Positions 790 through 29,781 of a DNA stretch of 42,977 nt are shown here, piece after piece (the stretch's first letter is position 1; each line of letters starts with the position of its first letter). The translations under genes were made by a program, and so were the position numbers. The stretch is from the IMG/VR virus record IMGVR_UViG_3300037854_000066, positions 1-42,977 of that record. One strand, written 5' to 3'. The stretch is from a virus (taxonomy: Duplodnaviria > Caudoviricetes). The notes under the pieces are model-generated. The model was given only the letters and a program-made list of their open reading frames with translations. It searched no databases and was not told the origin of the DNA.

Positions 790-1059
790 ATGAAAAAATT
801 ACTCTTAATCCTGCTGATCGGGATGATCAGCATGATCAACAATGAATCGATGGAGACTGCGGAGCCTAGCATCCAAGTCGAACTGCATCAGAGCGAGTAC
901 ACAGCCGAACTATTAGGCTTGGGAAAGCCGAAGTACAAGATCAATAAGATCCAGCGACAGAACAGCCCCAAGCGAAAGAACAAGCGGAATAAAAGACTGC
1001 TGAAGAAGTGGGGACTGGCTGAGGTGGAGATTACTGGAAAGGAGGTGAATCGTGGCTAA
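790..1059 (+). CDS. Hypothetical protein, signal-peptide-like N-terminus and basic C-terminal half
   Basis: MKKLLLILLIGMISMI N-terminus; ends in the AAGGAGGTG junction motif. Confidence 0.65.
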   Translation: MKKLLLILLIGMISMINNESMETAEPSIQVELHQSEYTAELLGLGKPKYKINKIQRQNSPKRKNKRNKRLLKKWGLAEVEITGKEVNRG

Positions 1060-1360
1060 GGATCAATTTCTTATTCTATCCCTGAAGCATAGCGAAGGAT
1101 CAAAGCCCTGCTTCTGGCGACCTGATGACGCGGGATACACTACGATTCCCTGGGCGGCAGGTGTATATAATCGAGCAGCAGTAGAGGCAAATCCAAAGTA
1201 CTACAATAATGGGTATGATACGCTAGCTGTTGAATTCTCCAATCATGCACTGGAATCAATCGGGTTTAAGTGCAGCATGGATGTGAAAAAGGTTCAGGAA
1301 CTGGCAAAAGCCGCCAGAATTCAAAGAACACTGGAAGAAAAGGAGGTGTCCAATGGATAA
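1052..1360 (+). CDS. Hypothetical phage protein (FWRP..GYT...AG.Y motif)
   Basis: GTG start 13 nt after the beginning of AAGGAGGTG; 8-nt overlap with upstream gene. Confidence 0.8.
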   Translation: MAKDQFLILSLKHSEGSKPCFWRPDDAGYTTIPWAAGVYNRAAVEANPKYYNNGYDTLAVEFSNHALESIGFKCSMDVKKVQELAKAARIQRTLEEKEVSNG

Positions 1361-1580
1361 GCCAGTAATTCAAATCAAAATTGAAGGACCTCAAGGATCT
1401 GGGAAGACTACGCTAGCTCAGACTCTTACGACTCTCTTTCGGATTCTTGGTAGATACTTGGTCGTCAGTTCCACGGACAATACCAGCGATCGAGAATTAT
1501 TTCATCTAGAAGATGAGTATCATATCCTACAGATCACCACGGAGCAAACTCCAAAGGAAAAGGAGGTGAGTAATGGGTAA
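1353..1580 (+). CDS. Very small P-loop-containing protein
   Basis: IQIKIEGPQGSGKTT Walker A; SD-like motif at 1340-1348. Confidence 0.7.
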   Translation: MDKPVIQIKIEGPQGSGKTTLAQTLTTLFRILGRYLVVSSTDNTSDRELFHLEDEYHILQITTEQTPKEKEVSNG

Positions 1581-2001
1581 TGTAATCTCACCGGCATCTC
1601 TTCGGGAATTTAGGAAAAATCTGATCGAATCAAAATGGGAGGGTGAACCCCGTCTTGGACTTGGAATAGCCAATATGCTCTACATCAATAAAGGAGCCCA
1701 GCTGGCAATGAAATTAAACGCGGACGATCATCAGAATCATCTTCTAATCACTCAGGATGATGAAGGGTGGCTTTACATCAAAAAAACACCCTCTAGCAAT
1801 GTTACCTGGGAGGTGAAGAAATATAAGGATGGAGGAATGAGGATCACTAAGACTGCTCTTTGTCGATTCTTAAGAACATACTTTAAGATCAGGAAAAGTC
1901 AAACCGCAAGCTTTAAACTCACTCCGATGGAGGATGGATCTTTCCGTATCAATGTCCCTACTTTATCCATTGTAGAAGAAAAGGAGGTGTCCAATGGCTA
2001 A
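1573..2001 (+). CDS. Hypothetical phage protein
   Basis: SD-like motif at 1560-1568; 8-nt overlaps at both ends. Confidence 0.8.
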   Translation: MGNVISPASLREFRKNLIESKWEGEPRLGLGIANMLYINKGAQLAMKLNADDHQNHLLITQDDEGWLYIKKTPSSNVTWEVKKYKDGGMRITKTALCRFLRTYFKIRKSQTASFKLTPMEDGSFRINVPTLSIVEEKEVSNG

Positions 2002-2287
2002 GCTATCGTACACGAAACTGAATTCACCAAGTAGAGGAAGGTATGACCTGATGGTAGATGCGAAGGTGAAGGAACTGATAGACTGGTATGAGATCAGCAT
2101 GCTCTTGACTTTCGCTGCGGAATGGGAAGAGTGGGCAGTGGGTATTTCCGATACAAATGCCTTCAGCTTTAGGAATGCTTACCGATTCAAAATCGAAAAT
2201 GGAGTGGGTCAAATCTGGAGACAGTTCTCCGGCTCTGATAAGGATCCGATTCTGGTCTATGAAATCAAGGAGGTGGGTAATGGGTAA
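1994..2287 (+). CDS. Hypothetical phage protein
   Basis: SD-like motif at 1981-1989; 8-nt overlaps at both ends. Confidence 0.8.
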   Translation: MAKLSYTKLNSPSRGRYDLMVDAKVKELIDWYEISMLLTFAAEWEEWAVGISDTNAFSFRNAYRFKIENGVGQIWRQFSGSDKDPILVYEIKEVGNG

Positions 2288-2522
2288 GCTGTCTCTATTT
2301 GAATATATAGCCTCTGATTTACCGCCTGAAAGTAGCTCAAATGTTTTAAAAAGATTTGGATATTCAGACAGTTATCCTGCCAAAATAACTTCTGAAGAAA
2401 TCGAGATTCCACACTGGAATATAGTTTCTTATTCTTTCCGAAGAAGAAGGTGGGAAAATATGGACGCTGAAAGAGTTCAGGTAATTAATTGGTATTCGGA
2501 AAAGGAGGTGGGTAATGGGTAA
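2280..2522 (+). CDS. Hypothetical phage protein (start moved to ATG 2280)
   Basis: AAGGAGGTG at 2267-2275 places the start at 2280 (MGKLSLF), matching neighbouring junctions. Confidence 0.75.
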   Translation: MGKLSLFEYIASDLPPESSSNVLKRFGYSDSYPAKITSEEIEIPHWNIVSYSFRRRRWENMDAERVQVINWYSEKEVGNG

Positions 2523-3423
2523 GCTAAAACCAAATCAATTCCACCTGCCATCCGGTGGACGGATCACTGAGCGACCGATCCTATTTCAGACGGATATGGT
2601 GAAGGCTATCCTGGACGGAAGAAAGACGCAGACGAGGAGGAATATCAAGAACGTAGAGCTGCGTCCCTCCAAAAATGAAGGTCGATTTAACTTCAGTTAT
2701 GAAAGGAAGACAAGATTTGAAGCAGGAGTTAATCTTACTCTTGAATCGTTAAACCTGCCATTTACTGGAATACTTGATTTATGCCCCTACGGCAAGCCCG
2801 GCGATCTGCTTTGGGTGAGAGAGACTTGGCTGAAACTCGATCGAGATCATGTAATCACTTCTCAATATGCCTACAAATCAAATGGAGATCCAAATACTGA
2901 AGATCTGAGAAAGGACTATATAAAATCTGGAAGAAACTACAAATGGAAACCCTCAATCCATATGCCCAAGGATGCGGCGCGGATCTGGCTGATGGTCGAG
3001 GAGGTACGAGTGGAGCGACTGCAGGATATCAGTGAGGAGGATGCGATTGCAGAGGGCATAGGTACAACCAATGGAATTCCAGTTGGATTGACCTCACACT
3101 ATTTAGATTATTTGAATAATCGAAACTGTTACTCCTCACCATTTAACTCTTTCCAATCACTCTGGGCCTCGATTAACGGGGAGGAGTCCTGGAATGCCAA
3201 TCCATGGGTATGGGTGGTGAAGTTTCGGGTGATTGCTAATAATGGATATCATCGCTTGGATTGCATTGAGTGGAACTATCATGAGGTAATGAAGATCCAT
3301 GCAGATAGAGAGAAGCAATCCTATGAGACTGCCGCTCCCGATTCTCGGGATCGCAGTGACGGTAAACAGATTCCGGTGAGTGAAGACACTCACCGGGGCG
3401 GAAAGGAGGCTGGCCATGAATGA
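2515..3423 (+). CDS. Widespread phage protein, ASCH/PUA-like (ERPILF..MV.AILDGRKTQTRR family), with repeat-derived C-terminal extension
   Basis: Motifs ERPILFQTDMVKAILDGRKTQTRR, CPYGKPGDLLWVRETW, WKPSIHMP, ERLQDISEEDAIAEG, NPWVWVV. Confidence 0.8.
   Translation: MGKLKPNQFHLPSGGRITERPILFQTDMVKAILDGRKTQTRRNIKNVELRPSKNEGRFNFSYERKTRFEAGVNLTLESLNLPFTGILDLCPYGKPGDLLWVRETWLKLDRDHVITSQYAYKSNGDPNTEDLRKDYIKSGRNYKWKPSIHMPKDAARIWLMVEEVRVERLQDISEEDAIAEGIGTTNGIPVGLTSHYLDYLNNRNCYSSPFNSFQSLWASINGEESWNANPWVWVVKFRVIANNGYHRLDCIEWNYHEVMKIHADREKQSYETAAPDSRDRSDGKQIPVSEDTHRGGKEAGHE
3325..3360 (+). repeat. REP-like palindromic element core (GAGACTGC...TCGCAGTGAC), in-frame in CDS
   Basis: 3325-3368 matches 30999-31042 at 42 of 44 nt. 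Confidence 0.9.
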
Positions 3424-3862
3424 GCACTATCACGATCATGAGCAGGATGAGCGGGATTATTATGAGCGGTCCTTTACCCGAAGGCATGAATATGCTTGGT
3501 GGGCCTTTCGCTGGATGATCAAACTGATCATTCCGATGCTCTTGCTTTCCTGGCTATTCTTTGGATGCTCGTCGGCTCAGCCGATTGCTACTGAGTCAAC
3601 CGGCACGGTGATTCAGGTGGATGGTGAGCGCGTATTGGTCACCTTCAAAGTGGTGAATAAGAAATACGCGGATCAGGGCGTGAACTGGTTCTACATTCCG
3701 GGTCACAGCTACCAGGAAGGGGATCGGTATCCTGATCCGAAGAAGGATCCTTCGCTGGGATCGTCATTGCGAGGGAGGAGGAACGACTACCGCGGCAATC
3801 TTCTTACTGGTGAGACTGCTTCGGGCTACGCCTCTCGCAGTGACGGGATGACAATCAATTAA
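3416..3862 (+). CDS. Membrane/lipoprotein-like hypothetical protein (start moved to ATG 3416)
   Basis: AAGGAGGCT at 3403-3411; hydrophobic stretch ending FFGCSS; C-terminus encoded by a repeat element. Confidence 0.7.
   Translation: MNEHYHDHEQDERDYYERSFTRRHEYAWWAFRWMIKLIIPMLLLSWLFFGCSSAQPIATESTGTVIQVDGERVLVTFKVVNKKYADQGVNWFYIPGHSYQEGDRYPDPKKDPSLGSSLRGRRNDYRGNLLTGETASGYASRSDGMTIN
3762..3845 (+). repeat. Full-length REP-like palindromic element (CGTCATTGCGAG...CTCGCAGTGACG), inside CDS
   Basis: 12-bp terminal inverted repeat with one mismatch; internal GCAATC...GAGACTGC. Confidence 0.9.
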
Positions 3863-3876
3863 AGATCTACTTTGCT

Positions 3877-4137
3877 ATGAAAGAACAAGAACTGTATCAA
3901 CGGCATCTGGACTTTGCCGTAGGCGATGCCCGGGTGTGGTTTCGCAATATTCCCAGGCTGACTCATCGCTTTATCTGTCAGCGACTGGTGGACTCGATCA
4001 CGAGTCAGTTTCGCGGGCATGAGCTGATGCTCTTTCACTTTGAGCTGGCCAGAATCGAGGATCGGACCTATGAGATCCGCGTGAATAAGTCGGCTTACGT
4101 GAAGCTACTTGTCGGAAAGGAGGTGCATGATGAGTAA
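3877..4137 (+). CDS. Hypothetical phage protein
   Basis: ORF ending in the KEV junction motif. Confidence 0.7.
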   Translation: MKEQELYQRHLDFAVGDARVWFRNIPRLTHRFICQRLVDSITSQFRGHELMLFHFELARIEDRTYEIRVNKSAYVKLLVGKEVHDE

Positions 4138-4327
4138 GGAAGCGACGGTCCGTGAGAACATTACGCAGCTATCTACTCCGGAGCTATGCCAAAAGATCCG
4201 TGAGACGCAGGAGCTGATCTGCAACAATTTCAATCTGTGCTCTTCTATCCTGGACCTTAAAATCCGCGAGCTGCAACTGATGATCGAAGTGCGCGACAGC
4301 AGAAAGGAGGCTGATGATGGGGTATGA
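4130..4327 (+). CDS. Hypothetical small helical protein (start at 4127 or 4130)
   Basis: AAGGAGGTG at 4117-4125. Confidence 0.65.
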   Translation: MSKEATVRENITQLSTPELCQKIRETQELICNNFNLCSSILDLKIRELQLMIEVRDSRKEADDGV

Positions 4328-10198: not shown

Positions 10199-10684
10199 AT
10201 GCCCCAATTAGACAAGAAGGCTGCCTGGCAGGTGGCCGAGCTCCAGGTGTCGTACAGACGCCATGAACCCCCATTGATTATCCGAGATTCTGAGGATGCG
10301 GCGAGCTGTCTGCACTCCTGTTGGGATCCTGATCTATTGGATATCCAGGAGCAGATCGCCGCACTCTATCTAGGAGTCAAGGGTGAGGTAATTGGCTATA
10401 GACTGATTAGTTCCGGCAAACTTAGCACTGCAAACCTGGACACTGCCCTACTGCTAAGCTGTGGGCTACTGGTCCGGGCGGATTCCTTTATCCTGGCGCA
10501 CAATCATCCCAGTGGAGACCCCAGTCCGAGCCGGACGGACATTCGCACGACGCTGCAGCTGTGCAAAGCGGCTGAGCTCGTGGGATTGGAGCTGTATGAT
10601 CATATTATACTAGCCCGGGATCTACGCTGGCACTCGATGGTGGATGAAGGCAACTTTGTCCCCCGGCGACTGATGCGCCGCTAG
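10199..10684 (+). CDS. radC: RadC-like JAB/MPN domain protein (copy 1)
   Basis: VAELQVSY, QEQ, ILAHNHPSGDPSPSRTD, LYDHII. Confidence 0.92.
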   Translation: MPQLDKKAAWQVAELQVSYRRHEPPLIIRDSEDAASCLHSCWDPDLLDIQEQIAALYLGVKGEVIGYRLISSGKLSTANLDTALLLSCGLLVRADSFILAHNHPSGDPSPSRTDIRTTLQLCKAAELVGLELYDHIILARDLRWHSMVDEGNFVPRRLMRR

Positions 10685-12372: not shown

Positions 12373-13599
12373 ATGGCACGAAAAAACCAGAAATTCTATG
12401 AAATAGTCAATCAATCCGACGACAGCAAGTCAGTCGATATTCTGATGTATGGATCCATTCCCAGCTGGGATGAGGATACCTACAAGATGAAGAACTCAGC
12501 AGAATCCTTTGCCAAGGAGCTGAAGAACCTAGAGAAAGACTACGATCGGATCAACATCCACATCAATTCACCAGGGGGTTCTCTGTACCACGCCTTCCCC
12601 ATCTTCAATGCGATCCGCAATTCGAAGAAAGAAATCCACACCTACAATGATGGCCTTGCCGCTTCTGCCGGTGGCCTCTTGCTGCTAGCTGGCAAGAAGG
12701 TACACACCGCCAAAAACGGCATCCTGATGATTCACAATGCCATGGCTTGGGCTTATGGTAATTCTGATGATTTCCGGGAGACCATGAAAACGCTTGATAC
12801 CTATGATGGGATCATTGCGAAGCTATTTGCAGAGCGAACCGGGATGAGTGAGGAGGATGTGAAGGAGAAATACCTGAACTACAAGGATCACTGGCTGGAT
12901 GCGGAGGAAGCTTTGGAAGCTGGATTCATCGACGAGATCGAGGAATACGAGTCAGAGGATGCGCCACCGAGCAATATCACAGAGATGGCCTTTAACGAGG
13001 TCCTGAATCTGTATCGGGCAAAGGAGGAGAAATCAGAATCCTTCCTGGACAAAGTAGTGAATAAGGTGCGGGCTGTGATGGGGGCTGATTCTAAAGAGAC
13101 TGCCGCGTCTCGTACCTCGCCTCGCAGTGACGAGAGCGATAAGGAGACTGCTTCGACCGCAAAAGCGGATCTCGCAGTGACGGAACCACAATTGAACCAC
13201 AAACCAAAAACTGATATGGACTTTAAGAATGCCCTGGAGATCCTGAACAAGGAGAATCCAAGCGCCGAGGAGTTGCAGGCTGTCAAGAATGACATCACGG
13301 CTTTCACCGGTGCCAATGAGCGATTCACCGCAGAAGAGGTGACCGCAAAAGTAGATGCAGCTAAGCAGGAGATTCAGAATCAACTGGATGCTGCCAATAC
13401 CGAGAAGACCAACCTTGAAAACAAGGTGAAAGATCTCGAAGCGACTGTGAATTCCTACAAGGAATCCGGTGTGACTCCTTCGAATGTGAAGGATGGTAAG
13501 AAAGACCCGATCGATGCTGATGAGCAAGAGAACCTGCTCACAGAGGCTGACATCGAGATTCGCAACATGCGCAAGCAGATGGGAATCGCGGCAGAATAA
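12373..13599 (+). CDS. ClpP-like head maturation protease with C-terminal scaffold-like coiled coil
   Basis: IHINSPGG, DGLAASAG (Ser), LMIHN (His), WLDAEEALEAGFIDEI. Confidence 0.93.
   Translation: MARKNQKFYEIVNQSDDSKSVDILMYGSIPSWDEDTYKMKNSAESFAKELKNLEKDYDRINIHINSPGGSLYHAFPIFNAIRNSKKEIHTYNDGLAASAGGLLLLAGKKVHTAKNGILMIHNAMAWAYGNSDDFRETMKTLDTYDGIIAKLFAERTGMSEEDVKEKYLNYKDHWLDAEEALEAGFIDEIEEYESEDAPPSNITEMAFNEVLNLYRAKEEKSESFLDKVVNKVRAVMGADSKETAASRTSPRSDESDKETASTAKADLAVTEPQLNHKPKTDMDFKNALEILNKENPSAEELQAVKNDITAFTGANERFTAEEVTAKVDAAKQEIQNQLDAANTEKTNLENKVKDLEATVNSYKESGVTPSNVKDGKKDPIDADEQENLLTEADIEIRNMRKQMGIAAE
13096..13181 (+). repeat. Two tandem REP-like cores inside the protease linker
   Basis: GAGACTGC...CTCGCAGTGAC at 13096-13131 and 13144-13181. 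Confidence 0.9.
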
Positions 13600-16213: not shown

Positions 16214-16318
16214 GGAAGCTGATCCCGACACGAGGCAAGAGACTACGGCATAAAGCCCACCCACTATTCACATGCTTATTTATTCCGTTTCCTCTTGCAC
16301 TTAGTCGGTCTGAGTTCC
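16214..16318. repeat. Long hairpin direct repeat, copy 1
   Basis: 41-nt left arm and 40-nt right arm identical to copy 2; 24-nt unique centre. Confidence 0.92.
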
Positions 16319-16387
16319 GGGGGCTGATATCCAAATCAATTTCATTCAATCCTCCAGCGCAAGGAGTCTAAAGTCTGCACGGATATC

Positions 16388-16840
16388 ATGAAAACTTCCT
16401 CACACAGAATCGGCGAACTTAAAGTCATCTATCGCACTACTGCTTTGCCCTATCACAAGATCAGGAGCTCGTATGACACTTATGAGTTTCTAAAGAAGGT
16501 ATGGGATGAAGATCTGATTGAGTACATCGAACAATTCTGCATCATCCTGCTGAGCAGATCGAATCAAGTGATCGGCTATGACTTCATCTCGATGGGTGGC
16601 ACTGCCGGCACAGTAGTCGATGCCAAGGTGGTCTTTCAGACAGCACTTCTAGGTAACGCCAGTTCGATCATCTTGGCACACAATCATCCTAGTGGAAACC
16701 TCTCGCCTTCGGAGCCAGACAAACGGATGACTAGCCGAGTCTTTGAGATCGGTAAATCACTGGATATGCCAATTCTAGATCATATGATCATGACAAAAGA
16801 CGGATACTTCAGCTTCGCAGATGAAGGTATTATGAGATAA
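16388..16840 (+). CDS. radC: RadC-like JAB/MPN domain protein (copy 2)
   Basis: IGELKVIY, EQF, GGTAGTVVD, ILAHNHPSGNLSPSEPD, LDHMI, YFSFADEG. Confidence 0.95.
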   Translation: MKTSSHRIGELKVIYRTTALPYHKIRSSYDTYEFLKKVWDEDLIEYIEQFCIILLSRSNQVIGYDFISMGGTAGTVVDAKVVFQTALLGNASSIILAHNHPSGNLSPSEPDKRMTSRVFEIGKSLDMPILDHMIMTKDGYFSFADEGIMR

Positions 16841-16904: not shown

Positions 16905-17008
16905 GGAAGCTGATCCCGACACGAGGCAAGAGACTACGGCATAAATCCAACGCTGAATACCAGGCTGGTTTATTCCGTTTCCTCTTGCACTTAGTCGGTC
17001 TGAGTTCC
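16905..17008. repeat. Long hairpin direct repeat, copy 2
   Basis: Arms identical to copy 1; 23-nt unique centre. Confidence 0.92.
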
Positions 17009-17066
17009 TGGTATGCCCGCTTACATATCCTCCCCGCCAGGAGGCGAAAGTAGGCGGTAGATTAGT

Positions 17067-18178: not shown

Positions 18179-18768
18179 GCCTATTCAAGATCAAGGATCT
18201 GTCATCCAAACCCGCTGTCAAACCCCTTTCGCCTAGCGGACTCAAGCAGTCTGCCAGCGGAGCGCACAGATTGGGCAAATCACTGATTGACCTAGAGCGA
18301 ACCATCGAGGAGCTCGTGCCCGACCAAGCCCTGCAGTTTGCAACCGCAGGACGATGGTCTATGCACCAGCTCCTGGAATATCTGCTTCGAAAGACCGGGC
18401 CGTGCCGCGTTTGGATGACAACCTGGACTATCACAGAAGAACCTATGCGAGCACTACTAGGAATGATTACCGATGGGCTCATCCTGGAACTCAATGCCGT
18501 GCTAGACTATCGAATCGAACGAAGAAAGCCCGAGGCCTTTCAGTTAGCGAATTCCATCATCACCCGAATAAGACTCACAAAATGCCATGCGAAAGTATTG
18601 GTATTGGAAAATGAGAATTGGTCTGTAACGATCCTGGGATCAGCCAACTTCTCCAAGAATCCACGAATCGAAGCAGGGGTAATATTCTCAGATAAAAAAT
18701 CAGCTGACTTTCATAAAAAATGGATCAATGATGTGATCGACGGAAAGGAGGTATGGCGTGCTAAATGA
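18175..18768 (+). CDS. Phospholipase D-superfamily (single HxK) nuclease-like protein (start ATG 18175)
   Basis: CHAKVLVLE...ILGSANFSKNPRIE. Confidence 0.8.
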   Translation: MSLFKIKDLSSKPAVKPLSPSGLKQSASGAHRLGKSLIDLERTIEELVPDQALQFATAGRWSMHQLLEYLLRKTGPCRVWMTTWTITEEPMRALLGMITDGLILELNAVLDYRIERRKPEAFQLANSIITRIRLTKCHAKVLVLENENWSVTILGSANFSKNPRIEAGVIFSDKKSADFHKKWINDVIDGKEVWRAK

Positions 18769-27696: not shown

Positions 27697-28095
27697 ATGA
27701 GAGCATTCTTGATCAAATACCTATTTGGGCGATACTGGTGGAAATTCCCCTGGCAAAGCCGCTACAACTCCACTGACCGCGGAGCATTCTGGAATTTCAA
27801 CGGCTTTCTGCTGATCGCTATTCTATTCCTGATCACAGGATCCGAACTGATCATCAGCCTATCTATTCCCTGGGCACTGCAGGTGCTTTACTTTGGATTT
27901 GATCTGAGAGGCTATGGCTACTTCAGCCGCTACCCGGTGAAGTGGAAGGAGCTGGACGATGAGCAGAAGTGGTACTATGGGCAGGCGGCCCTGAGTGGTC
28001 AGTTGACGAAGCGATTGAAATTCAGCAGCTATCAAATGAGCGAGTGGATGGGTATCAATAATCGGTTTAAGGATAAGTACAATTTGCGTAAATGA
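27697..28095 (+). CDS. Membrane hypothetical protein
   Basis: Central hydrophobic segment, aromatic-rich. Confidence 0.65.
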   Translation: MRAFLIKYLFGRYWWKFPWQSRYNSTDRGAFWNFNGFLLIAILFLITGSELIISLSIPWALQVLYFGFDLRGYGYFSRYPVKWKELDDEQKWYYGQAALSGQLTKRLKFSSYQMSEWMGINNRFKDKYNLRK

Positions 28096-28517
28096 ATCTC
28101 GAAACCCTCAAGACACTCACGGACTGGTCAAGGCGTACCGCACTGGTGCTGGATCGGGAGATCGTGCGCTGGAAGCTTCAGGACACGCGAGACCTACAGC
28201 AATCGCTCAAGGAGCGGGTAGATCAGAAGACCGAGTCCCTGCTGGTGGCGCAGCTGCAATTCTTGGTCCGAGGTCGCTTTCAGGATATGGGTGCCGGGCG
28301 TGGCTCCAAGCGAAACTTTGAGTCACGTGATGGCAATCGTGAACTGCTGGGAGGCTCCAAGCGCAAGGCGAAGCGCTGGTATTCCCGTGCCTTCTGGGGA
28401 CGAATCAATGATCTGCAAGGTGTGCTCGGCTATCGCCTGATGGAAAGTGCTATCAACTCCGTGAAAGAACCCCTCGAATGGCGATCCACTGGCAATGTCG
28501 GCAGGCCGATGTTGTGA
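28092..28517 (+). CDS. Basic neck/virion morphogenesis-like protein
   Basis: T..L..SL, GRFQDMGAGRG, RKAKRWYSR. Confidence 0.6.
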   Translation: MNLETLKTLTDWSRRTALVLDREIVRWKLQDTRDLQQSLKERVDQKTESLLVAQLQFLVRGRFQDMGAGRGSKRNFESRDGNRELLGGSKRKAKRWYSRAFWGRINDLQGVLGYRLMESAINSVKEPLEWRSTGNVGRPML

Positions 28518-28590
28518 TAAGTAATTATCACTTGTTTTATTTGGTGGAAATTGCTTAATTAGAACTGCGAATCCTTTTAAAGGTAAAAGT

Positions 28591-28869
28591 GGGGGAGACA
28601 GACGACGGTTTCCTCCCCTTTATTTGACATCTAACCATCCGAAGAGAGGCGAGCGCCTTGATCTGATACTGAAAACCTGATGGAGGGCATGCCCGTGAGG
28701 ATACGCTGTTTAAACCTCACATGCCAAAGGGACGGACAGTCGATTCAGGAAGTCCACGGGTCAGATTAGCAGCAAAGGTGCTGTAGGTCCAATAGAGCAG
28801 ATGAGCCGGCCCGCAAGTATGGAGACGGCTCAAATACCAGGCAAAGCCCCAGGAATACTCTTGGGGCTT
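28591..28869 (+). ncRNA. Candidate large structured non-coding RNA
   Basis: No ORF; at least eight mutually nested helices found by eye; ends in a terminator. Confidence 0.6.
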
Positions 28870-28873
28870 ATTT
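28844..28873 (+). terminator. Intrinsic terminator
   Basis: AAGCCCCAGGA-ATAC-TCTTGGGGCTT followed by ATTT. Confidence 0.8.
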
Positions 28874-28920
28874 GATTAATGACTTTCTGAAAGTGAATTC
28901 TTTAATTTAATATTGTAAAG

Positions 28921-29394
28921 ATGAAGGCCAGCTCCATTAGCAGCAGAAACAGAAACAGCGGACTATTCACTGAAAGTGAATGGGAACCCGGTATTTGGCT
29001 TGCCGCATTTCTTATGTTTTCGATGATGGGAATTCTAATTCCAGCTTTCGCTTATATCGGCATTCCCTTACTATCGATGCTTTACTTCAGAGATGTAATT
29101 AGAGATATGATACTCCAAATTTCCTTGGTAAGATCCCTGCTGGGCGGTAATTGGCAACTGGTGGAATACCACATATGCCCCAGATTTACTGGTGGAAATT
29201 GGAGAGTCATAAGCATTTGGGAAAGAAGCCCAGGACATACCTTCCGATTCGATCCTTCCAAGGGGGACTATTTCGAAATATTAAGAAGGAATTCAGATCG
29301 AAGCAACAGGCTATTTTCGGCCAAAGAATGTAAGTTGATTCTCTTTGGTGCCTTAGTGATGGCAATTCTTTTCCTGCTTCCTTATTTTCTTTAG
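28921..29394 (+). CDS. Moron-like membrane protein
   Basis: AT-rich; N-terminal and C-terminal hydrophobic helices. Confidence 0.65.
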   Translation: MKASSISSRNRNSGLFTESEWEPGIWLAAFLMFSMMGILIPAFAYIGIPLLSMLYFRDVIRDMILQISLVRSLLGGNWQLVEYHICPRFTGGNWRVISIWERSPGHTFRFDPSKGDYFEILRRNSDRSNRLFSAKECKLILFGALVMAILFLLPYFL

Positions 29395-29466
29395 GAGAAT
29401 AGACAATATGCTTCTTGCTCTGTATGCTGCAAGTAATTAAAGACCCTGATCATTTACAAAGTCATT

Positions 29467-29781
29467 ATGAAACATCTATCCGAACTAGACCATCTAGCCA
29501 TCAACCGAATACTTCTCTATGAGCCATTCAATAAAGAAGAAGTTGAGCGAGCTTATAAGGTATTTGGTATTCATTACACACTACACTTTCTTGGTGTAGT
29601 ACGACAACTTGCAATCGGAATCGACAGTGCCCTCAATCTAATTGGTCAGCTGCAAGACCACTATGATATTCCTTCAAACTGGGAAGAAATAGATCCAACC
29701 AAGCAAAGATCCTACTTTAATGCTGCGATGAACTGGTTGAGAAGTATTATGAAAGGCACCATTTCCCTTGACGCTTATTAA
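29467..29781 (+). CDS. Moron-like hypothetical protein
   Basis: AT-rich 104-aa ORF. Confidence 0.65.
   Translation: MKHLSELDHLAINRILLYEPFNKEEVERAYKVFGIHYTLHFLGVVRQLAIGIDSALNLIGQLQDHYDIPSNWEEIDPTKQRSYFNAAMNWLRSIMKGTISLDAY

Follow-up and report, generated by a model that had tools for sequence, protein, structure and literature searches.

A probable structured RNA with a predicted pseudoknotted module in a variable slot of a temperate Bacteroidota phage

The DNA analysed here, referred to as the window, is a stretch of 42,977 nt that makes up the record of a temperate phage (43 kb), in which an integrase, a tape-measure protein and a CHAP endolysin are encoded. An element of about 280 nt (28591-28869, plus strand) lies directly 3' of a late gene of 141 aa (28092-28517, plus strand) that anchors a slot of variable content. 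As the closest named relatives of the 141-aa gene belong to Cyclobacteriaceae, we infer that the host is a member of this family. The gene has 66 homologues, and in distant relatives the homologue stands directly 5' of a gene resembling the tape-measure gene; searches of PHROGs and Pfam gave no family for it, and the label 'neck genes' attached to this region in a preliminary description was thus not confirmed. Downstream of the element, and outside it, are two orphan ORFs of 157 aa and 104 aa (28921-29781, plus strand), for which family searches returned no family and no toxin family; the 157-aa protein has a single other homologue, P0068. A 132-aa ORF at window 27697 precedes the 141-aa gene, and its homologue in one relative (L015, 3481-3882) follows that gene instead, which suggests that this ORF is itself a mobile moron.

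Other repeats and signals are present in the window. Early genes (1036-4140 and 18742-18768) carry a strong Shine-Dalgarno-like repeat 5' of their start codons; Bacteroidota seldom use Shine-Dalgarno sites. Two copies of a repeat of about 110 nt, with blocks 92-96% identical, flank a RadC-like gene (16388-16840) at 16214-16321 and 16905-17011, and could possibly represent a second RNA motif or a recombination site; the window has another RadC-like gene at 10199-10684. A REP-like repeat, palindromic and 45 nt long, occurs in five copies (3324, 13095, 25126, 30998 and 37224), one of them inside the endolysin gene and one inside a 408-aa ORF at 12373.

The element has a GC content of 53%, compared with 27% just upstream and 48% for the whole window, and so is relatively GC-rich, as had been claimed. 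It was also described as free of ORFs, and this holds: no ORF of at least 40 aa overlaps it, the longest being 29 aa on the plus strand and 38 aa on the minus strand. Comparison with Rfam gave no match at gathering score and only weak, unrelated matches at E up to 10, in keeping with the inability of the preliminary description to assign the element to a known class of RNA. ARAGORN and Rfam call no tRNA or tmRNA gene in the window, and the element has no cloverleaf, T-loop or anticodon arm. Reading of the sequence for a tmRNA tag frame placed a stop codon five codons ahead of the stop codon in the loop, and among close homologues, which carry frame-breaking indels, no conserved tag reading frame was found. 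Self-comparison revealed no second copy of the element in the window, and antisense targets within the window were limited to matches of 11 nt. The count of GGA is at chance level, and there is thus no signal of a CsrA sponge.

We surveyed the slot in nine distinct relatives whose 141-aa gene is at least 50% identical (L015, L016, L017, L025, L026, L035/L036, L037, L038 and L078). None of the nine has this RNA in its slot. Three (L016, L017 and L078) have a called tRNA gene there, and a fourth, L026, has a tRNA-like cloverleaf called by neither program; the remaining five have unrelated genes or repeats. In L017, L078 and L026 a hairpin similar to that at the 5' end of the element lies just 5' of the tRNA or tRNA-like fold, with a terminator on the 3' side. 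The cloverleaf of L026 (3530-3600), which escapes both ARAGORN and Rfam, is degenerate and retains its T-loop intact. On the reverse strand of L078, past the 141-aa homologue, is a stretch of about 500 nt that holds only RNA features (a hairpin, tRNA-Trp, several long hairpins and a terminator), and a similar tail stands behind tRNA-Met in L016; compared with Rfam, these tail stretches gave nothing beyond tRNA. Behind the tRNA in L016, L017, L026 and L078 there is each time a run rich in purines and then a G-rich stem, a combination also seen at window 28641-28658.

Words of the stretch are contained in eight public sequencing runs, none of them registered as RNA, so that they have no bearing on expression. 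Six were compared: X2, X3 and X5 from one study, X4 and X8 from two more, and X7. The element is carried by X2, X3, X4, X5 and X8, in contigs that represent three other studies, and in X4 and X8 it is located directly 3' of the same gene as in the window. We found that the element has changed less than its surroundings. The window and X4 differ 8 times over 243 nt of core and 43 times over 237 nt of upstream flank (P = 7e-8), and for X8 the counts are 18 over 287 nt of element and 29 over 151 nt of coding DNA (P = 7e-5, both by Fisher's exact test, with boundaries of core and flank that were chosen after the data had been seen). Overall, differences amount to 3-6% in the element and 18-19% in the flank. 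A single plus-strand mini-ORF spans the conserved module described below, and indels that break its frame (+1 in X4, +2 in X2 and X5, -1 in X8) fall inside it. Variation is concentrated in the leader, loops and bulges, and the neighbouring stems are invariant. The high identity could also stem from recent transfer of a cassette.

These comparisons also bear on the two downstream ORFs, for which the preliminary description had proposed the element as an antitoxin. In X2, X4 and X8 homology stops at 28874-80 and the downstream DNA differs; in X7 the terminator and the DNA that follows are present behind a different upstream sequence. The RNA thus occurs without the morons, and the terminator and downstream DNA occur without the RNA, which indicates that RNA and moron travel apart. 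The sequence that precedes the position of window 28844 in X7 (record 7) is GC-balanced and may be another RNA of this slot. That the element serves as RNA antitoxin or cis-regulator of the two morons is suggested by their adjacency, as a pseudoknotted RNA, a terminator and then an ORF resemble the layout of type III systems; with neither ORF in a toxin family, the RNA present in a single copy, and RNA and next moron gene each found alone, this proposal is largely refuted and we regard it as highly improbable.

Several parts can be distinguished along the element and its upstream border. A palindrome that covers the stop codon of the 141-aa gene (28515-28530) is present once in the window. It had been singled out in the preliminary description, and is not conserved: X4 differs at 28516, 28520 and 28522, and X8 carries an insertion; the palindrome is probably not an operator. 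It overlaps a conserved AT-rich block of 44 nt (28523-28566), predicted to be a plus-strand promoter of the Bacteroidota type, in which no X4 change is found among the differences listed. The block has TTG at 28532-34, and 28555-62 matches four of the six fixed positions of TAnnTTTG, the consensus given in PMC7641319; there is no perfect TAnnTTTG box near the element. The records of X2 (28524-28683) and X3 (28536-28727) each contain one difference. The leader that follows (28567-28590) is variable, with at least 12 substitutions and also insertions in X4, and differs in X8 too.

The 5' hairpin (28591-28618) folds better than shuffled sequences (z -2.9) and is predicted to be terminator-like. 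At the loosely aligned end of X4, its stem is retained and its loop replaced. It likely shields the 5' end, and could alternatively terminate read-through from upstream. At the other end, a terminator-like hairpin of the intrinsic type, whose U tail is weak (28844-28877), marks the point where homology ends; one X4 contig keeps the base of the stem and has a new upper stem, and a change at 28845 in X8 preserves the pair. Both end hairpins had been proposed from the window alone, and both are upheld by the retention of their stems in homologues.

Between them lies the RNA core (28621-28836), in which differences are fewer than in the flank in both X4 and X8. Its ends may close through a weak A-U stem (28621-25/28832-36), which has no change among the homologues and hence is uninformative on pairing. 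A small tetraloop hairpin (28647-28658), present in the minimum free energy fold, is invariant in close homologues. It is followed by a long stalk (28658-28769) formed by 28658-67/28760-69 and then 28668-70/28751-53, with z -1.7; its paired positions are invariant and three substitutions lie in the variable bulge at 28754-59. The stalk bears a conserved module of 75 nt (28676-28749) with a closing helix (28676-83/28741-49), a hairpin (28685-94), a stem with a 14-nt loop (28695-700/28715-20) and a purine-rich linker (28726-35). A pseudoknot (28705-28740) is predicted between 28705-09 and 28736-40, with two further G-U pairs possible, and both strands are invariant in close homologues. On the 3' side of the stalk are a hairpin (28769-28784; P 0.92-0.96), in which a change at 28779 breaks only the pair that closes the loop, and a tentative, weak stem of 3 bp with a variable loop (28787-28802). 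In the register 28787-89/28800-02 a change at 28802 converts G-U to G-C, and the bases that vary in the loop are 28792 and 28795. The core ends in a stable hairpin (28803-28831; P 0.98, z -2.7) that is invariant in close homologues.

We compared the folding of the region with that of shuffled sequences, as the preliminary description had suggested. The whole region gives z -2.7 on the plus strand and -1.0 on the minus strand. Once the two end hairpins are removed, the core gives z -0.85, and 42 of 200 shuffles fold equally well, so that the expected excess of folding stability is found for the whole stretch and is owed to its end hairpins, the core being near chance. Perfect helices of at least 5 bp are likewise no more frequent in the core (13) than in shuffles (13.8). 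It follows that the helices listed in the preliminary description are no evidence on their own. That list named six long-range complementarities and the palindrome, and all are present in the sequence. They cannot all form together: two of them overlap at base 28720, and the outer 7-bp stem and the GAGCCG hairpin (P 0.98) both use 28830-31. The homologues back part of the nested fold, namely the 5' hairpin, the terminator, 28695-700/28715-20 and a helix around 28676-80/28745-49. They do not support the CATCT/AGATG helix, in which 28802 is changed in all four of the runs that cover the site with its partner unaltered, or GGCATG/CATGCC (28686-91/28720-25), in which X8 has two disruptive changes and whose 3' strand is missing in the distant homologue described below. 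The conserved pseudoknotted module was absent from the list. On sequence comparison, the nested fold thus appears only half right and in need of revision.

The module was recognised through a distant homologue. A pattern scan with a 16-nt loop motif returned 11 viral matches, of which one, L094, is real. Positions 384-447 of L094 align with window 28684-28744 at 24.5 bits, and identity extends to two more blocks, one of 10 and one of 13 nt, outside the search pattern (chance about 4e-12). L094 comes from a distant Bacteroidota phage of the same broad family as the window phage, and has the module in a different slot, ahead of genes that match window 21467 and 21823 at 35% and 28% identity. About 40 module bases, largely unpaired, are identical in two phages whose neighbouring proteins are 28-35% identical.

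Comparison of the two sequences gives a model of a closed three-way junction that would consist of the closing helix, the small hairpin, and the stem with its pseudoknotted loop. The closing helix is retained with different letters (7 of 8 pairs and one bulge in the window; 10 of 12 pairs in L099), and a change at 28742 in X8 mends its one mismatch in the window. The module stem of L094 has one pair more, and U-A in place of one G-C pair. All five pairs of the pseudoknot can form in both sequences, with a single one-sided change (G-U to G-C) and duplex energies of -5.8 and -7.2 kcal/mol. Of the 36 cells counted on the alignment of the two, 34 are paired, and three changes are two-sided, for a structure that was drawn from these same sequences; pairing is 94% in register and 30-49% in slid registers. 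As 47 of 500 shuffles reach the pairing score, this covariation is consistent with the structure and is not significant. Compensatory change, on which the preliminary description had proposed to judge the fold, is accordingly limited to these three two-sided changes, and there is none in the core among the close homologues, which are 94-97% identical. Folded without the pseudoknot, the module is at chance (z -0.4 and +0.9).

The context of the module in L094 is different. There it lies within the final 25 codons of an ORF of 133 aa, whose N-terminus is hydrophobic and resembles a signal peptide and which has a perfect TAnnTTTG (-7) box upstream and a terminator downstream; the stand-alone 133-aa ORF with a start like that of a signal peptide, one homologue and the RNA module in its last codons is at L099 1139-1540. 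The 133-aa protein, P0069, has one homologue, P0070, which keeps the C-terminal residues; searches with P0069 gave no family and no usable fold match, and the literature yielded nothing relevant on a C-terminal peptide motif of small Bacteroidota proteins. Outside the module, the window RNA matches nothing in L094 significantly (56 of 500 and 215 of 500 shuffles are as good for the two flanks). The mini-ORF of the window spans the module and shares the four residues of P0069 on each side of it, with another frame between, which suggests a common origin with a gene of this kind; the identity of bases that are read in different frames suggests that selection acts on the RNA. As P0070 keeps the C-terminal peptide, coding constraint may contribute to conservation in L094.

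The position of the module in L094, in the last codons of an ORF and just 5' of a terminator, and the residues shared by P0069 and the mini-ORF are both as expected if the module acts in cis by pausing ribosomes or blocking a nuclease, the window RNA then being a descendant of an L094-like mRNA that lost its frame and now gives rise to a stable processed small RNA. We consider this improbable, given that the frame changes in the middle of the module, that the close homologues add indels of +1, +2 and -1, that similarity to the L094 mRNA is not significant in the flanks and that nothing in the window is there to be controlled.

Searches for further members returned no other homologue. DNA searches of phage and plasmid records gave no match (in one, only chance matches with E of 2-8), and a phage protein search none. 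By BLAST the element is found in none of 401 genomes of the family and none of 301 of the order; one of 123 genomes of the genus and one of five further genomes gave short chance matches in genes. A first structural model (R1) identified nothing real in 86 loci, nor anything in the sets of five and 123 genomes, and a second (R2) had no match in sets of 25 records, 150 and 101 and one in another 150, which is a false match inside a long gene. A pattern search of the 86 loci gave none. Other viral pattern scans produced 14 and 21 matches, none of them related, and further scans produced none. One candidate, L089, showed plausible pairing and was rejected as it lies inside a long reading frame and the rest of the element is missing. 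We found no description of the element in the literature searched, which left most subscription papers outside, nor the motif in three of the six supplementary files of PMC10690425, whose alignments may contain it. The RNA family looks rare, and samples that lack a real match do not prove its absence.

Absence from the genomes sampled, core folding and helix counts at chance, and close homologues of high identity with no two-sided change are all compatible with a non-functional remnant, spread by recent recombination among related phages and composed of two terminators and chance pairings. Such an origin would leave unexplained why leader, loops and bulges vary beside invariant stems, and why L094 shares with the window both identical blocks and a pairing specific to one register; we think it a poor explanation, less probable than action in cis. 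Very likely the element is instead a functional structured RNA. Its claimed status as a stand-alone phage RNA is supported, as far as sequence can do so, by conservation, frame-breaking indels, retained end hairpins, location in a tRNA slot and a distant homologue compatible with the structure. It is real and probably represents a new, undescribed family of phage RNA with a small core.

This RNA resembles several known systems, in setting (GOLLD and ROOL), in host range and size (theta ribozymes) or in predicted fold (type III antitoxins), and differs from each in a defining feature. As with GOLLD and ROOL, the location is a prophage tRNA site, a tRNA occupying the slot of three of nine close relatives. 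Many GOLLD members exceed 800 nt, according to 10.1101/2024.12.08.627333, whereas this RNA has about 280 nt, matches no GOLLD or ROOL covariance model and has only the 75-nt module as a shared part. The tRNA morons of L016, L017 and L078 occupy the same slot with the same layout (AT-rich promoter-like block, tRNA, hairpins and terminator), including in L017 and L078 the 5' hairpin, and differ in having the cloverleaf, T-loop and anticodon arm. Type III antitoxins (ToxI and CptI) and the pseudo-ToxI of phage TE are pseudoknotted RNAs that neutralise a protein in trans, as described in PMC5086642, and this is conceivable here; those antitoxins comprise tandem repeats of about 35 nt with a linked toxin, and here there is one copy in a scaffold and no linked toxin.

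Theta ribozymes, minimal HDV-like RNAs, are small, pseudoknotted and situated at phage tRNA loci, adjoining phage tRNAs, with about 90% in Bacteroidota hosts (PMC10879173). They have a nested double pseudoknot with a catalytic C in J4/2; the module has a single predicted pseudoknot in a three-way junction, no adjoining tRNA and no Rfam match. An HDV-like or theta fold was also considered by eye and rejected, as a similar order of helices requires 28686-91/28720-25, missing in L094, and there is no P4. Other classes were rejected by eye, on their characteristic features: RNase P RNA (similar motif order, no partner strand for P4), group II introns, in which domain 6 comes after domain 5 (a 29-nt hairpin with AGC that is short and followed by the terminator), and group I introns (no P7 guanosine site with a G-C pair and bulge), none with an Rfam match, as well as SAM riboswitches, twister-sister, pistol, hammerhead and TnpB guide RNAs. 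Still, a module of about 60-75 nt with a predicted pseudoknot, with many invariant unpaired bases and portable between contexts, could be a small ribozyme of a class not described before, one that cleaves itself or processes RNA and so brings about the maturation or turnover of the phage RNA carrying it. This is the main rival to the reading favoured below and appears unlikely, if less so than action in cis: neither phage has an Rfam match at E up to 10, the closing helix would keep both products together, a cut in L094 would hit an ORF that is apparently maintained, and the window has no tRNA to process.

A junction, a pseudoknot and invariant joining strands are common anatomy for aptamers, and the module is predicted to have all three; it might on this ground bind a metabolite and serve as sponge or sensor. 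With no expression platform, no constant downstream gene and no match to an Rfam riboswitch, we judge this very improbable, below even the remnant.

The explanation that we favour, tentatively and from sequence comparison, is that a temperate phage of Bacteroidota here carries a stand-alone gene for a non-coding RNA, and that the predicted pseudoknotted module of this RNA may intercept a host protein in trans, as a decoy. A decoy is preferred as the module is portable, is closed on both sides, contains many invariant unpaired bases and, in cis, meets nothing constant that it could regulate. One of the two phages presents it at the end of a stalk in a non-coding RNA and the other within the final codons of an mRNA, as would suit a surface for binding that is portable and has only to be abundant. 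Transcription would start from the element's own host-type promoter, predicted from an imperfect match, and yield one transcript of about 300 nt, from about 28570 to about 28875, protected by its end hairpins. The stalk would raise the 75-nt module, which would fold with the pseudoknot predicted from two sequences. Most speculatively, the module would then act in trans, for example by titrating a host anti-phage nuclease or RNA-binding protein, a role that the slot tRNAs may fill in relatives. As a precedent, phage TE suppressed a host toxin by means of a pseudo-ToxI RNA (PMC5086642).

For the structured RNAs that prophages keep at tRNA sites the question of purpose is still open, and those known so far are large and difficult to take apart. 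The shared module of 75 nt is small enough for direct in vitro tests of cleavage, folding and binding, and its occurrence in both a non-coding scaffold and an mRNA would be unusual. It is possible, if rather doubtful, that it belongs to a class of RNA modules new for Bacteroidota phages, portable and either catalytic or protein-binding; if so, it would be either a new class of self-cleaving ribozyme or a Bacteroidota RNA counter-defence factor, and either would be of wide interest.
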